Counted from the stretch's first letter, positions 8,503 to 23,765 are shown. The stretch: DNA of 52,859 bases from a virus (IMGVR_UViG_2909303794_000004), one strand, 5' to 3'. The notes: generated by a model not told the origin, from the letters alone. Program-made: numbers and translations.

Positions 8503-8844
8503 GTGCACCGGCAACCATTCTTGATATGTGCTGTGGCAGCCGCATGTTCTGGTTCGATAAGTCTGACGAACGGGCGATATTCAGCGATATCAGAAAAGAA
8601 GGATACACATTACGCAATGGGAGACGCTTGATTATCAGCCCTGACATTATCGCAGATTTTCGTGCATTATCATTTGCAGACGCATCTTTTTCGATGGTTG
8701 TATTAGACCCTCCGCATCTTGAGAGTGTTGGTGATAACGCCTGGATGGGAAAGAAATATGGACGGCTGAATAAAGATGCCTGGCGTGATGATTCGCGACA
8801 GAGATTTAAAGAAGCCTTTCGGGTGTTGAGGCCGCACGGCGTAC
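8499..8844 (+). pseudogene. DNA methyltransferase gene, 3' end removed by IS insertion
   Basis: SAM-binding motif ILDMCCGS and a DPPH(L) motif; reading frame runs into the IS629-like left end at 8845. Confidence 0.65.
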
Positions 8845-8898: not shown

Positions 8899-9225
8899 AT
8901 GACTAAAAATACACGTTTTTCCCCCGAGGTCCGTCAACGGGCAGTTCGTATGGTTCTGGAAAGTCAGGGCGAATATGACTCTCAATGGGCGGCAATTTGT
9001 TCCATTGCCCCAAAGATTGGCTGTACACCAGAGACTCTGCGTGTGTGGGTTCGTCAGCATGAGCGGGATACCGGGAGTGGTGATGGTGGACTCACCACCG
9101 CTGAACGTCAGCGTCTGAAAGAGCTGGAACGTGAAAATCGTGAACTGCGCCGCAGTAACGATATCCTTCGCCAGGCTTCCGCTTATTTTGCGAAGGCGGA
9201 GTTCGACCGCCTCTGGAAAAAATAA
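8899..9225 (+). CDS. IS3-family transposase OrfA (108 aa)
   Basis: [50 protein letters not shown]… matches remembered IS629 OrfA. Confidence 0.9.
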
Positions 9226-14566: not shown

Positions 14567-16105
14567 ATGAACGACATCTCTTCTGACGACATCTTCCTGC
14601 TGAAACAGCGCCTGGCCGAACAGGAAGCGCTGATCCACGCCCTGCAGGAAAAGCTGAGCAACCGGGAGCGCGAAATAGACCATCTGCAGGCGCAGCTGGA
14701 TAAACTCCGCCGGATGAACTTCGGCAGTCGTTCCGAAAAAGTCTCCCGCCGTATCGCACAAATGGAAGCCGATCTGAACCGGCTTCAGAAAGAGAGCGAT
14801 ACGCTGACTGGTAGGGTGTATGACCCGGCAGTACAGCGTCCGTTGCATCAGACCCGCACCCGTAAGCCGTTCCCTGAATCACTACCCCGTGACGAAAAGC
14901 GACTGTTGCCTGCGGCGCCGTGCTGCCCGAACTGCGGCGGTTCACTGAGCTATCTGGGCGAGGATACCGCCGAACAGCTGGAGTTGATGCGTAGCGCCTT
15001 CCGGGTTATCCGGACGGTACGGGAAAAACATGCCTGTACTCAGTGCGATGCCATCGTGCAGGCACCTGCACCTTCGCGGCCCATCGAGCGGGGTATCGCC
15101 GGACCGGGGCTGCTGGCCCGCGTGCTGACCTCGAAGTATGCAGAGCACACCCCGCTGTATCGCCAGTCAGAAATATACGGCCGGCAAGGTGTGGAGCTGA
15201 GCCGTTCACTGCTGTCGGGCTGGGTGGATGCATGCTGCCGGCTGCTGTCTCCGCTGGAAGAGGCGCTTCATGGCTATGTCATGACTGACGGCAAACTCCA
15301 TGCCGATGATACCCCGGTCCAGGTACTGCTGCCGGGTAATAAGAAGACGAAGACCGGGCGGTTGTGGGCGTATGTTCGTGATGACCGCAATGCCGGGTCA
15401 GCGTTGGCACCTGCAGTGAGGTTCGCTTACAGCCCGGACAGAAAAGGCATCCATCCGCAGGCTCATCTTGCTTGCTTCAGCGGTGTGCTGCAAGCGGATG
15501 CGTACGCCGGGTTCAACGAGCTGTATCGCAATGGTGGGATAACGGAAGCTGCCTGCTGGGCTCATGCCCGCCGAAAGATCCACGATGTGCACGTCCGCAT
15601 CCCGTCAGCACTGACGGAAGAAGCCCTGGAGCAGATCGGTCAGTTGTACGCCATAGAGGCGGATATAAGGGGAATGCCGGCAGAGCAGCGGCTTGCTGAA
15701 CGTCAGCGAAAAACGAAACCGCTGTTGAAATCCCTGGAAAGCTGGTTGCGTGAAAAGATGAAGACCCTGTCGCGACACTCAGAGTTGGCGAAGGCGTTCG
15801 CGTACGCACTTAACCAGTGGCCGGCACTGACGTACTATGCGAACGATGGCTGGGTGGAAATCGACAACAACATCGCTGAAAATGCCCTGCGGGCGGTCAG
15901 TCTGGGTCGTAAAAACTTCCTGTTCTTCGGCTCTGACCATGGTGGTGAGCGGGGAGCGCTACTGTACAGCCTGATCGGGACGTGCAAACTGAATGACGTG
16001 GATCCAGAAAGCTACCTTCGCCATGTGCTTGGCGTCATAGCAGACTGGCCGGTCAACCGGGTCAGCGAACTGCTTCCGTGGCGCATAGCACTGCCAGCTG
16101 AATAA
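14567..16105 (+). CDS. IS66-family transposase (orf3)
   Basis: 512-aa ORF with N-terminal coiled-coil/leucine zipper and cysteine cluster (CPNCG…CTQCD), typical of IS66 transposases. Confidence 0.9.
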
Positions 16106-16142
16106 CACATCCCCGTCAATACGGCCCTCGCTGTACGCTTAC

Positions 16143-16367
16143 TAACAACTGCTCCAGTTGAGCCCAGAGGCTTTCAATTTGCTTCTGTACCAATGCAGCC
16201 ATTTCTTTTTTCTGCTGTGTCGTCATCCCCTCTTCCGATGAGATTTTCCCAAGCTTTTCAGTCAGCACCTGAATTTGTCTTGTGATTTTGGCTATTTCTG
16301 ATGTTCCTTCCGGGGCGGAGTTGTTTGAAATAACGGTTGAGGTATTTCCCTGAATTGTGACAGACAT
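16143..16367 (-). pseudogene. flxA: flxA 5' fragment (N-terminal 75 codons)
   Basis: MSVTIQGNTSTVISNNSAPEGTSEIAKITRQIQVLTEKLGK… matches remembered FlxA; reads into the ISEc8 right end. Confidence 0.8.
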
Positions 16368-17869: not shown

Positions 17870-18121
17870 ATGATGAACATCGAAGAACTGCGTAAAATTT
17901 TTTGTGAAGAGGGCCTCTATGCTGTGTGCGTTGAAAATGGAAATCTTGTTAGTCATTACCGCATTATGTGTTTGCGAAAGAATGGGGCTGCGTTAATTAA
18001 TTTTGTGGATGCTCGGGTCACGGACGGATTTATCTTGCGCGAAGGTGAGTTTGTCACTTCATTACAGGCATTGAAAGAGATCGGAATAAAAGCTGGCTTT
18101 TCTGCTTTTTCAGGAGAATAA
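17870..18121 (+). CDS. rem: Rem-like small protein (83 aa)
   Basis: 83-aa ORF in the K-12 rem position between hokD and ydfU. Confidence 0.6.
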   Translation: MMNIEELRKIFCEEGLYAVCVENGNLVSHYRIMCLRKNGAALINFVDARVTDGFILREGEFVTSLQALKEIGIKAGFSAFSGE

Positions 18122-18187
18122 ACTCATCTACAATCTTGCGCGGGGCTGAACTCCCGCTGAGTAACACCGTGCCACCGGAGAAAACCG

Positions 18188-18466
18188 ATGGCACGCAACG
18201 CAAAATATTACAATTCTGATAATTCGCCCGTTCTTGCCTGCACGCACGGGCGGTATTCTCACGCATTCAAGTCTGAATGGTTCCAGCACCCTCCATGCAC
18301 TGCAGAACAGGCCGAATGGCTGATTCATTCTTACCGCAGGCGCGGGTTCGAGGTTAAGAAAGCTCTCAGTCTCGACTATCGGCACTGGATAATCTCTGTC
18401 AGGCTGCCTTATTCCGAACGCCCACCACGTGCGTCCCGCACTTTCCAGCAACGGATCTGGAGGTAA
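18188..18466 (+). CDS. hypothetical protein (92 aa) translationally coupled to ydfU
   Basis: GGAG 7 nt upstream of ATG; stop TAA at 18464-18466 lies 1 nt before the ydfU GTG start and inside its Shine-Dalgarno. Confidence 0.5.
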   Translation: MARNAKYYNSDNSPVLACTHGRYSHAFKSEWFQHPPCTAEQAEWLIHSYRRRGFEVKKALSLDYRHWIISVRLPYSERPPRASRTFQQRIWR

Positions 18467-18467
18467 C

Positions 18468-19517
18468 GTGCGGGTATTACTTAGACCTGTTCTGGTGCCT
18501 GAGCTTGGGCTGGTGGTCCTTAAGCCGGGCCGTGAATCCATACAGATATTTCATAATCCTCGAGTGCTGGTGGAACCGGAACCAAAAAGCATGCGTAATC
18601 TGCCATCCGGAGTCGTTCCTGCCGTTCGCCAGCCGCTGGCGGAAGACAAAACATTGCTGCCGTTTTTTAGTAACGAACGGGTGATTCGTGCTGCTGGCGG
18701 CGTTGGCGCATTGTCCGACTGGCTATTACGTCATGTTACATCCTGCCAGTGGCCTAATGGCGATTACCATCACACTGAAACAGTCATTCACCGTTATGGT
18801 ACCGGCGCAATGGTGTTGTGCTGGCACTGCGACAACCAACTGCGTGACCAGACATCGGAATCACTGGAGCTGCTTGCTCAACAAAATCTGACAGCATGGG
18901 TGATTGACGTCATCCGTCACGCAATAAGCGGTACGCAGGAGCGGGAATTATCTTTGGCTGAATTATCCTGGTGGGCGGTCTGCAATCAGGTGGTGGATGC
19001 ACTACCTGAGGCTGTATCGCGTCGTTCGCTGGGATTACCAGCGGAAAAAATCTGCTCGGTGTACCGCGAAAGCGACATCGTACCGGGAGAGCAGACCGCC
19101 ACCAGCATATTGAAACAACGCACAAAAAATCTTGCACCGTTGCCTTACGCCCACCAGCAACAAAAATCACCACAGGAAAAGACGGTGGTAAGCATCACCG
19201 TTGATCCAGAGTCTCCGGAATCTTTCATGAAGCTGCCTAAACGTCGCCGCTGGGTTAAGGAGAAATACACACGTTGGGTTAAGACACAGCCGTGTGCTTG
19301 CTGCGGTATGCCAGCCGACGATCCGCATCATCTGATTGGTCACGGGCAGGGCGGAATGGGAACAAAAGCACATGATCTCTTTGTGTTGCCTTTGTGCAGA
19401 AAGCATCACAACGAGCTGCATACGGATACAGTGGCATTTGAAGAGAAGTATGGCTCCCAACTGGAGCTGATATTTCGTTTTATCGATCGCGTGCTGGCAA
19501 TTGGCGTACTGGCGTAA
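18468..19517 (+). CDS. ydfU: YdfU-like protein (349 aa) with C-terminal HNH-like Cys/His motif
   Basis: GTG start 5 nt after GGAGGT gives 349 aa; C-terminus CACCGMPADDPHHLIGHG…HDLFVLPLCRKHHNELH resembles an HNH nuclease motif. Confidence 0.65.
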   Translation: MRVLLRPVLVPELGLVVLKPGRESIQIFHNPRVLVEPEPKSMRNLPSGVVPAVRQPLAEDKTLLPFFSNERVIRAAGGVGALSDWLLRHVTSCQWPNGDYHHTETVIHRYGTGAMVLCWHCDNQLRDQTSESLELLAQQNLTAWVIDVIRHAISGTQERELSLAELSWWAVCNQVVDALPEAVSRRSLGLPAEKICSVYRESDIVPGEQTATSILKQRTKNLAPLPYAHQQQKSPQEKTVVSITVDPESPESFMKLPKRRRWVKEKYTRWVKTQPCACCGMPADDPHHLIGHGQGGMGTKAHDLFVLPLCRKHHNELHTDTVAFEEKYGSQLELIFRFIDRVLAIGVLA

Positions 19518-19530
19518 GTGGAGAACGAGC

Positions 19531-20283
19531 ATGAACCTTGAAGCCTTACCAAAATATTACTCCCCAAAATCTCCAAAATTGAGCGATGACGCTCCAGCGA
19601 CAGGCACCGGTTGTTTAACAATTACGGATGTAATGGCAGCGCAGGGGATGGTGCAGTCGAAAGCACCACTTGGGTTGGCCTTATTTCTGGCAAAAGTTGG
19701 TGTTCAGGACCCTCAGTTTGCGATTGAAGGCCTGCTAAATTACGCGATGGCACTGGATAACCCGACATTGAACAAATTGAGTGAAGAAATCCGGTTACAG
19801 ATTATTCCTTACCTCGTGAGTTTTGCCTTTGCTGATTACTCCAGGTCTGCGGCAAGTAAGGCTCGCTGTGAGCATTGTTCAGGTACGGGATTTTATAATG
19901 TATTGCGCGAAGTGGTGAAACACTACAGACGCGGGGAATCTGTAATCAAGGAAGAATGGGTGAAGGAACTATGTCAGCATTGCCATGGTAAGGGCGAAGC
20001 CAGCACAGCGTGCAGAGGGTGTAAGGGTAAAGGGATTGTTCTGGATGAAAAAAGAACCCGGTTTCATGGCGTACCGGTATATAAGATTTGTGGGCGTTGT
20101 AATGGAAACCGGTTTAGTCGTTTACCGATCACGCTGGCACGACGTCATGTCCAGAAGCTGGTACCAGACCTGACCGATTATCAGTGGTATAAGGGGTATG
20201 CGGACGTCATTGGTAAACTGGTAACAAAGTGCTGGCAGGAAGAAGCATACGCGGAAGCGCAATTGAGGAAGGTGACGAGATAA
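19531..20283 (+). CDS. quuQ: late-gene antiterminator Q (250 aa)
   Basis: 250-aa ORF with cysteine cluster (CEHCSGTG…CQHCHGKG…CRGCKGKG) upstream of a candidate late promoter and terminator; position and size match K-12 quuQ. Confidence 0.8.
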   Translation: MNLEALPKYYSPKSPKLSDDAPATGTGCLTITDVMAAQGMVQSKAPLGLALFLAKVGVQDPQFAIEGLLNYAMALDNPTLNKLSEEIRLQIIPYLVSFAFADYSRSAASKARCEHCSGTGFYNVLREVVKHYRRGESVIKEEWVKELCQHCHGKGEASTACRGCKGKGIVLDEKRTRFHGVPVYKICGRCNGNRFSRLPITLARRHVQKLVPDLTDYQWYKGYADVIGKLVTKCWQEEAYAEAQLRKVTR

Positions 20284-22874: not shown

Positions 22875-23765
22875 TCAGGCTGCCAGATCATCGTTTCCGA
22901 TGGAAGCATAATAAGCTTTTTCTGCTTCTGCCGGAGGAGTATGGCCCAGCCTTTCCAGCAATCGTCGATTGTTATACCAGTCCACCCACGTGAGTGTGGC
23001 CAGTTCCACTTCTGCACGGTTTTTCCAGCTCTTACGGTGTATTACCTCCGCTTTGTAAAGGCCATTGATGCTCTCCGCCATCGCGTTGTCATACGAGTCG
23101 CCTGTACTTCCTGTTGATGCCAGTAATCCGGCTTCCTTAAGCCGCTGTGTGTAGGCCAGCGATACATACTGAGAACCTTTATCACTGTGATGGACTGTGC
23201 CGGACGGTCGACGGGCCCATAACGCCTGCTCCAGAGCATCCAGCACAAATGTCGTTTCCATAGACGATGAGACCCGCCACCCCACGATGTATCCGGCAAA
23301 CACATCAATGATGAACGCCACATAGACGACCCCCTGCCATGTGCTGACGTAAGTAGAATCAGCCACCCACAACTGGTCAGGACGTTCTGCCACGAACTGA
23401 CGGTTTACGCGGTCGCCTGCGACAACGGCTTTCCGGCTGATGGTCGTACGGACCTTTTTACCACGGAGAACACCGGCAAGTCCCATAACCGCCATGAGAC
23501 GTGCCACAGTGCATCTGGCCACTCTGATACCTTCCCGTAACAACTGACGCCAGACTTTACGCACACCGTATACCTTGTGATTTTCATCGTATACGCGCTG
23601 TATCTCTTTCTTCAGCCAGTCATCGCGCTGCGCACGGGCACTGCGTTTATCCGGATGATGTCGCTGTTGCTGACAGTGGTAATACGTTGACGGGGCAATA
23701 TGCAGTTCGCTGCATAGCGGTCCGACCCCGTACTGCTCACGCAGCTTATCCAGCAGTGGCATCAT
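22875..23765 (-). CDS. IS3-family transposase OrfB
   Basis: 296-aa ORF homologous to 9225-10112. Confidence 0.9.

Follow-up and report, generated by a model that had tools for sequence, protein, structure and literature searches.

The window, a 52,859-nt stretch of viral DNA, contains a Qin-type prophage segment in which flxA, relB, relE, hokD and rem are followed by a 92-codon open reading frame (ORF), ydfU and the antiterminator gene Q (quuQ/ydfT; Table 1). Upstream of the ORF/ydfU pair the window carries toxin–antitoxin (TA) modules, rem and IS sequence, with hokD and relBE lying on this side, and downstream a gap of 13 nt separates the ydfU stop codon from Q. A preliminary description of the locus had given the small ORF its own Shine–Dalgarno sequence and had placed its stop codon one nucleotide before the ydfU start, inside the ydfU ribosome-binding site. 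Both details are correct: a GGAG motif precedes the ATG, a single base (C 18467) separates TAA from GTG, and the GGAGG motif of ydfU coincides with the last two sense codons of the ORF.

A longer reading of ydfU from GTG 18429, which would encode 362 residues, is unlikely because distant relatives from P1 (PdcB), a Vibrio phage, mEp390 and 2H10 align from residue 1 of the 349-residue form, with the shared start MR(V/A)LL.P. Promoter and terminator scans around the pair gave no excess over shuffle expectation, and no LexA box was found 5′ of rem, the window-wide count of such boxes being at chance level.

Table 1 Features of the small ORF/ydfU locus, numbered from the first nucleotide of the window
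Feature	Position	Strand	Details or basis
rem	17870–18121		
Predicted hairpin at small-ORF start	18168–18195		Covers GGAG and ATG
Shine–Dalgarno sequence of 92-codon ORF (GGAG)	18177–18180	+	7 nt 5′ of its ATG; sequence reading
92-codon ORF	18188–18466	+	ATG 18188–18190, TAA 18464–18466; WP_012304870.1; phrog_1212 member
N-terminal extension, codons 1–26	18188–18265	+	Escherichia clade only; weak constraint; predicted disordered (pLDDT <50)
Conserved core, codons 27–92	18266–18463	+	dN/dS, AF2 model, invariant residues
Predicted hairpin at ydfU start	18435–18474	+	Within last 10 codons of small ORF; Shine–Dalgarno sequence and GTG paired
ydfU Shine–Dalgarno sequence (GGAGG)	18459–18463	+	Codons W91 and R92 of small ORF; 4 nt 5′ of GTG
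ydfU	18468–19517	+	GTG start, stop 19515–19517, 349 aa; PdcB/YdfU family, C-terminal DUF968 His-Me finger
YdfU N-terminal conserved domain, ~residues 77–180	18696–19007	+	Alignment with P1 PdcB, Vibrio, mEp390 and 2H10 proteins
YdfU HNH/His-Me finger core, residues 276–318	19293–19421	+	CxxC, DDPHH, GTK, C-x2-[H/C]-H-N-E-L-H
Q (quuQ/ydfT)	19531–20283		Pfam Antiterm match; directly 3′ of ydfU

The small upstream gene and its family

Because a 137-aa ORF on the minus strand overlaps the 92-codon ORF, length by itself is no proof of coding. Among diverged E. coli alleles, however, pairwise dN/dS in codons 27–92 is 0.04–0.22 at dS values of 0.15–0.85, a range that leaves out one near-identical pair, and in codons 1–26 it is 0.38–0.75. 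Amino-acid conservation holds down to ~38% identity across several enterobacterial genera. RefSeq/PGAP calls the ORF as a CDS for a hypothetical protein in K-12 derivatives, and an EcoCyc-based list of the y-ome (PMC11551758) has no entry for it between rem and ydfU. An identification with ynfS was rejected, as ynfS is a 29-aa ORF between cspF and ydfT. This sequence evidence establishes the ORF as a genuine and conserved gene. The preliminary description had considered that it might be absent from, or non-conserved in, homologous prophages; instead, it is conserved there, with a core under strong constraint.

Residues 27–92 match the PHROG profile phrog_1212 from end to end (positions 1–66 of 66, E = 1.7e-35). 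No family in Pfam (at E < 0.1) or NCBIfam was matched, and membership of the NinF (PF05810) or NinE families likewise found no Pfam match at E < 0.1. A profile search collected 496 homologues, and an HMM search that exhaustively covered 1.84 billion representatives gave only 104 clusters at 50% identity, mostly stand-alone proteins of 66–69 residues. By genome scan the family occurs in Escherichia, Shigella, Citrobacter, Kluyvera, Leclercia, Enterobacter, Pluralibacter and related genera, and phage records extend its range to Salmonella, Klebsiella, Cronobacter, Yersinia, Edwardsiella, Hafnia and Erwinia. Homologues of 66 residues lack the N-terminal extension and begin, at the point corresponding to residue 26/27, with M-K-x-x-W-F.

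The core is confidently predicted by AF2 to form a beta-alpha-beta-beta fold followed by a basic C-terminal helix (strand 29–33, helix 39–51, strands 55–60 and 67–74, basic-tail helix 84–91), with block-mean pLDDT values of 87–90 over residues 31–70. Invariant residues are distributed along this fold (H34, C37, T38, Y49, G53, L60, D63, L73, P74, P80, R81, R84, Q87 and W91), and those from P80 onward define a basic tail, PRxSRxxQxxxW[R/G], in a protein that is Arg/Lys-rich overall. C37 is the single conserved cysteine, so the protein has no metal-binding Cys cluster, unlike NinF and NinE. A Foldseek search of BFVD returned a homologue, N15 Orf QD1, as the sole match; PDB sequence searches with the small protein, and a literature search with the protein sequence, found nothing. 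P1 PdcA was rejected as a distant homologue (hhalign E = 0.69).

It is extremely improbable that the 92 codons have no protein function and represent either a translated leader that feeds ribosomes to ydfU or a chance ORF. The weak constraint and predicted disorder of codons 1–26, the omission from the y-ome list and the lack of a Pfam or NCBIfam match would fit such a reading, but the low dN/dS of the core at high dS, the conservation of amino-acid sequence across genera, the confident core fold and the occurrence of the family before different downstream genes all argue against it.

The YdfU finger and N-terminal domain

YdfU residues 160–346 match Pfam DUF968 (PF06147) with 254.4 bits against a cut-off of 27.8, and the protein matches phrog_96, ‘HNH endonuclease’, with E = 1e-170. 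HNHc_6 matches residues 271–328 below its cut-off, and RecA_dep_nuc is likewise sub-threshold. The residues of a beta-beta-alpha-metal motif are in place: C276-x2-C279, D284-D-P-H287-H288 and C310-x2-[H/C]313-H314-N315-E-L-H318. Among Qin-type YdfU proteins C276, C279, H287, H288, C310 and H318 are invariant, H314 is nearly so, and position 313 is either C or H. AF2 places a strand at 285–288, a strand at 306–309 and a helix at 311–319, at low confidence. The HNH-like character ascribed beforehand to the C-terminal Cys/His cluster is thus upheld by the DUF968 and phrog_96 matches and by the conserved finger residues, and YdfU is, as judged from its sequence, an HNH-type protein with an intact His-Me finger motif. 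The HNH nature of YdfU had been published: Jablonska et al. (2017; PMC5714182) assign YdfU/DUF968 and YbcO/DUF1364 (PDB 3G27) to group 7 of the His-Me finger proteins and propose a role in recombination.

The C-terminal part of YdfU can be aligned with YbcO-like proteins (hhalign E = 9e-5), but YbcO of DLP12 is a 96-aa stand-alone finger, whereas YdfU has ~270 more N-terminal residues. Lambda Rap/NinG (PF05766), a branch-specific endonuclease by established activity (PMC5714182), also has a His-Me finger and resembles YdfU in occupying the slot just 5′ of Q in the early rightward operon and in having a stop/start link to a preceding small nin gene. By contrast, YdfU is 349 rather than ~200 residues long, has a different N-terminal domain and gives no match to the NinG profile; hhalign of its C-terminus with NinG covers only 21 columns at a probability of 12%. 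YdfU is therefore best described, from sequence comparison, as a positional analogue of Rap/NinG and not as a member of that family. A PDB search with the YdfU profile gave no chain at E ≤ 1.

The YdfU-like family is broad, with members in 186 phage records; Stx2c phages, mEp390, 2H10, Klebsiella and Vibrio phages are among them, as is P1 with PdcB. In a diverse alignment its best-conserved part is the N-terminal domain, not the finger, with C93, Q94, L117, C118, W119, D122, N123, R126, N140, W144, W168 and W169 invariant. A Cys/His pattern that swaps partners between lineages (C93, [H,C]101–102, C118 and [C,H]121) suggests a structural Zn site, which is probably present here. The idea that this region contains a second, degenerate HNH finger (DYHH...LCWHCDNQL) produced by duplication was rejected: aligning the N-terminal with the C-terminal region by hhalign yielded E = 0.15 across 9 columns, the HH of DYHH is not conserved in distant relatives, and the motif was re-read as the probable Zn site. 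In the description of Curtis et al. (2014; PMC4118853), DUF968 proteins consist of HNH fused to an Orf(NinB)-like domain. In YdfU, neither NinB (PF05772) nor DUF1367 matched at E < 0.1, and the model is too poor for a judgement of fold. Indeed, with a mean pLDDT of 47 for YdfU, the Foldseek matches of the model are meaningless and any function assigned to the N-terminal domain is a guess.

PdcB (‘post-doc’ gene B), the only named relative, is a full-length homologue of YdfU with ~26% identity over 91% of the length and is annotated as an HNH endonuclease. It retains the N-domain residues C93, Q94, LCW117–119, DN122–123 and WW168–169, but its HNH motif is degenerate, unlike that of YdfU, and it is non-essential in P1. 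Like ydfU, pdcB follows a TA pair and precedes a late-gene regulator, yet the small gene before it, pdcA (66 aa), has no homology to the 92-codon ORF.

Junction folding, co-occurrence and independence of the two genes

The geometry of the junction, read from the sequence, fits translational coupling, which is plausible. A hairpin predicted at the ydfU start pairs CUGGAGG, containing the Shine–Dalgarno sequence, with UUUCCAG, and GUGCGGG, containing the start codon, with CCCGCAC; it appears in both the minimum-free-energy and centroid folds and is predicted in 11 of 12 Qin-type variants. However, no compensatory changes were seen among the Qin-type variants, and a 131-nt region folds no better than its shuffles (z = 0.34), so predicted sequestration of the ydfU Shine–Dalgarno sequence and GTG is suggestive only. 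A 109-nt region around the start of the small ORF, where a second hairpin is predicted, folds with z = −2.5 against shuffles. In K-12, transcription 5′ of ydfU is strongly terminated, and silenced, by Rho (PMC9160355), as expected for nin-region DNA in the absence of antitermination.

In E. coli the two genes keep together: of 5426 complete genomes, 4528 contain the small ORF, at 8524 places, and 4544 the 5′ part of Qin-type ydfU, at 9097 places. The ratio is ~1:1, the pair reaches ~83% of complete genomes, and there are up to 8–9 copies per genome. This co-occurrence analysis, proposed in the preliminary description, agrees with the layout of homology in many prophages, where mosaic blocks begin ~17 nt before the small-ORF ATG and end either at the ydfU stop codon or at the start of the finger region. 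The neighbours of the pair vary, with rem or only hokD upstream, and RusA and different Q types downstream. Given the shared block boundaries and the variable neighbours, the small ORF and ydfU move as a block within E. coli.

The partnership is not obligatory in either direction. The small ORF is carried by 57 phage records, against 186 with YdfU-like, 719 with NinG and 207 with YbcO genes, and in P1, mEp390, 2H10, a Vibrio phage and E. coli BH100N the gene that precedes the YdfU-family gene is not the small ORF. One natural in-frame fusion of the small ORF to ydfU was found (P0165, 438 aa); it may be a mutation. Other database ‘fusions’ (YdfU with Q, duplicated YdfU, and an O-like protein with the small ORF) are apparently frameshifts or assembly artefacts and did not count as Rosetta-stone evidence.

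These patterns bear on whether the pair could be a TA-like or anti-phage defence system in which an HNH effector is restrained by a small immunity or antitoxin protein encoded upstream, beside hokD and relBE. The order of small gene and nuclease, the tight coupling and the nearby TA loci recall such systems, P1 pdcB likewise follows the TA pair phd-doc, and ydfU is included among the ‘toxic prophage genes’ that Rho silences (PMC9160355). Nevertheless, we consider this reading very unlikely. Obligate pairing, expected of a toxin and its antitoxin, is lacking in both directions, most nuclease homologues having no small-ORF partner, and neither protein matched a family among the PADLOC-DB 2.0 defence models at E ≤ 0.01. 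Moreover, functional temperate phages such as mEp460, PhiR42_1, Gifsy-2 and mEp237 carry the pair or its homologues in their early operon, an Arg/Lys-rich protein with a basic tail is not regarded as a typical nuclease-immunity protein, and hokD, relBE and rem are variably present beside the pair. The toxin genes and rem, whose product is a DicA antirepressor (PMC10448788), are separate modules, and the adjacency to toxin loci to which the preliminary description drew attention is incidental.

The ninR slot upstream of Q

Related phages and prophages place the pair in a familiar setting. In Gifsy-2 the order is DUF1367, small ORF, NinG and Q; in mEp237 and phiES15, DUF1367/NinB-like, small ORF, YbcO, RusA and Q; and in Edno5, small ORF, NinG and Q. 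NinG directly follows the small-ORF homologue in many other prophages as well. Related E. coli prophages run from a replisome organizer gene to hokD, small ORF, DUF968, RusA and Q, and an O157:H7 prophage shares this order from hokD onward with a DUF1133 protein gene as the final gene; the series small ORF, YbcO, RusA and Q thus parallels small ORF, YdfU, RusA and Q. Replication genes lie upstream of the pair in these related prophages and phages, in the ninR order. Here, by contrast, the upstream side of the window consists of TA modules, rem and IS sequence, and the nin-region context therefore rests on the related prophages and not on this copy. At the locus itself, the close spacing of co-oriented genes that characterizes a ninR chain (overlap or 1–4 nt) is found in the TAA-C-GTG junction, with ydfU 13 nt before Q. 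We conclude that the pair sits in the lambdoid ninR slot directly 5′ of Q (or of RusA and Q), as Rap/NinG and YbcO do elsewhere. The two genes can thus be given a place among known systems, contrary to what the preliminary description had supposed.

We surveyed the gene that follows the small ORF at 257 loci, representing 135 distinct small-ORF sequences. By distinct sequence, it is NinG in ~77, YbcO in ~18 and YdfU in 23, and a junction of the form TGG-GGG/GGT/AGG-stop-N1-2-ATG/GTG is common to the NinG, YbcO and YdfU loci; upstream of NinG and YbcO genes it reads TGG-GGG/GGT-stop-N2-ATG. In an Erwinia-type clade, other genes follow, encoding a Dcm methylase, NinF, an HNH_3-AP2 homing endonuclease, a dGTP-diphosphohydrolase domain protein or proteins of no assigned type; in PY54 the small ORF lies between an RdgC-like gene and a gene for a 175-aa protein. 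One phage, vB_EhrS_59, carries the small ORF together with Dcm, NinF and NinG. Lambda NinF and NinE, which are small, dispensable and interlinked with the nuclease gene, resemble the small ORF in position and size class but have no sequence relationship to it, and as vB_EhrS_59 illustrates, both families can share a phage.

Does this arrangement reflect a dedicated two-subunit nuclease, in which the small protein is a physical partner (a subunit that targets, activates or restrains the nuclease) and binds a feature common to YdfU, NinG and YbcO, with coupling to ensure stoichiometry? Several observations would suit such a partnership. The small ORF lies directly 5′ of a His-Me nuclease gene in ~118 of the 135 distinct sequences, across three Pfam families and with one type of junction; the pair is ~1:1 in E. 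coli; a natural fusion exists; and the small protein has a strongly constrained core and a basic tail. We nevertheless hold this reading to be doubtful. NinG, YbcO and YdfU have only the small His-Me core in common, and as positional analogues that occupy a single slot they would all be neighbours of whichever gene sits before that slot; synteny is thus enough to account for the adjacency. In addition, the Erwinia-type clade and PY54 have other genes after the small ORF, small-ORF records are far outnumbered by those of the nucleases, several YdfU-family genes lack the small ORF, and the fusion has a single member. Stop/start linkage is likewise the rule for nin genes: in mEp237 and phiES15 every gene from the small ORF through Q is linked in this way, and the classic account of nin-gene interlinking is that of Kroger & Hobom (1982; cited in PMC10695390). 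Linkage alone therefore defines no two-component unit. Of the earlier suggestion that tight coupling marks such a unit, the geometry and the near-equal numbers in E. coli stand, but the linkage is generic to nin genes and the pairing is not obligatory. The profile and structure searches also proposed at that stage placed the proteins in phrog_1212, DUF968 and phrog_96, whereas PDB sequence searches and Foldseek with YdfU were uninformative.

We therefore favor, as the probable explanation, a pair of consecutive delayed-early ninR genes of a lambdoid Qin-type prophage, belonging to a recombination module in which the small gene encodes an accessory protein. The ninR cluster serves recombination and DNA processing and ends at the antiterminator gene Q; in this proposal YdfU fills the slot of Rap/NinG or of YbcO (with RusA) and is expressed from the early rightward operon under antitermination. 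YdfU would most likely act as a metal-dependent His-Me finger endonuclease on branched or single-stranded intermediates of recombination and replication, and its N-terminal domain, probably Zn-binding and common to P1 PdcB, would provide substrate binding. The small ORF would be translated first, its 3′ end carrying the ydfU Shine–Dalgarno sequence, and ribosomes that terminate at the TAA (18466) would unmask, or reinitiate at, the GTG (18468), thereby coupling translation and fixing co-expression. With the Shine–Dalgarno sequence inside the end of the small ORF, and with this sequence and the GTG predicted to be paired, YdfU synthesis probably depends on ribosomes finishing the ORF. The small protein itself is best regarded as an accessory nin protein, possibly binding nucleic acid or protein, that is usually but not necessarily co-expressed with the nuclease.

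Part of this picture was available before: the ORF was annotated as hypothetical, and the nin-type neighborhood of YdfU, like its HNH nature, had been published. Three features are new. First, the small ORF can be assigned to phrog_1212, a compact family from enterobacterial phages whose members precede three families of His-Me nucleases. Second, the phrog_1212 junction makes dual use of its W-(R/G) codons as a Shine–Dalgarno sequence. Third, an N-terminal extension, predicted to be disordered, has been gained in the Escherichia clade. One bolder possibility, which we think unlikely, is that phage His-Me finger recombination nucleases have in phrog_1212 a first dedicated accessory subunit; this small basic alpha/beta protein would bind the finger shared by YdfU, NinG/Rap and YbcO, or the DNA substrate, and gate activity, and with its W-(R/G) codons doubling as the ribosome-binding site of the nuclease, the two proteins would always be made together.

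There are several implications. Placement in the nin cluster removes a spurious toxin or defence lead for this pair. More broadly, if the small protein modulates His-Me nucleases, it would add an extra regulatory layer to lambdoid phage recombination, the process behind the evolution of Stx and other prophages as mosaics.

Flanking genes and the rem-small ORF interval

Directly upstream of the 92-codon small ORF lies rem, whose product is an experimentally established DicA antirepressor (PMC10448788). Its presence beside the small ORF-ydfU block varies among related prophages, and a search upstream of the gene for a LexA box found none. The interval between rem and the small ORF (18122-18195) has a folding z-score of -2.5 relative to shuffled sequences and contains two predicted hairpins, the second of which covers both the Shine-Dalgarno (SD) sequence and the start codon of the small ORF. 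Within this second hairpin, at ~18171, is a mosaic homology boundary of many E. coli prophages. One sigma-70-like site overlaps the end of rem; in a regional scan, the number of such sites around the small ORF did not exceed shuffle expectation.

Farther upstream, a 512-aa ORF resembles, in translation only, an IS66-family transposase and adjoins flxA. The latter has 83 codons here versus 110 in a K-12-derived record, and may have been truncated by the adjoining IS66-like element. Downstream of cspB and ynfU, in the region of the lysis genes, a 296-aa ORF on the minus strand resembles, again in translation only, an IS3-family (DDE) transposase.

Coordinates of features in the window and in compared loci
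Feature	Location	Remarks
IS66-like ORF	window 14567-16105	512 aa
flxA	window 16116-16367	83 codons
rem	window 17870-18121	directly upstream of small ORF
Sigma-70-like site	window 18107-18134	TTTTCA-16-TACAAT
Predicted hairpin 1	window 18140-18157	folding; extended by 18122-18126 paired with 18158-18162
Predicted hairpin 2	window 18168-18195	folding
YdfU N-terminal domain	window 18696-19007	residues ~77-180; family alignment
IS3-like ORF	window 22875-23765 (-)	296 aa
172-173-aa ORFs	L222:4204-4722; L216:4204-4725	Erwinia-type phage contigs
phd-doc, then pdcA-pdcB	L261 (phage P1) 1592-3448	phd-doc is a TA pair

Small-ORF variants and a possible downstream insertion

In a 438-aa E. coli protein (P0165), represented by one member on one contig, the small ORF is fused in frame to YdfU, with SRTFQQR joined directly to MRVLLRP. 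Compared with the window, the fusion has lost 13 nt, including the stop codon, the spacer and the W91 and R92 codons that form the ydfU SD sequence (GGAGG). A 96-aa Salmonella homologue of the small ORF (P0121) carries an internal tandem duplication of a helix-strand segment, HHHDCTTEQADTLISDYQKRG.

In Erwinia-type phage contigs, ORFs of 172-173 aa overlap the small-ORF stop by 4 nt. The L222 ORF matches HNH_3 and AP2 in Pfam, a pair typical of homing endonucleases, and resembles a mobile insertion that separates NinF/NinG from the small ORF; a Pfam search with the L216 ORF gave no match.

The YdfU N-terminal domain and the phage P1 parallel

Conservation in the YdfU/PdcB family alignment is highest in the N-terminal domain, not in the HNH finger, with C93, Q94, LCW117-119, DN122-123, R126, W144 and WW168-169 invariant. 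This domain also contains a Cys/His quartet (C93, [H/C]101-102, C118 and [C/H]121) and, because Cys and His are exchanged between lineages at these positions, the pattern suggests a Zn site. PdcB, the full-length homologue from phage P1, retains the N-terminal domain as in YdfU, whereas its HNH motif is degenerate.

Although pdcA is not a relative of the small ORF, the two gene orders are parallel: in P1, pdcA-pdcB comes after phd-doc, and in Qin the small ORF and ydfU come after relBE/hokD. This resemblance may be coincidental, or TA cassettes may repeatedly have come to lie immediately 5' of genes of the YdfU/PdcB nuclease family.
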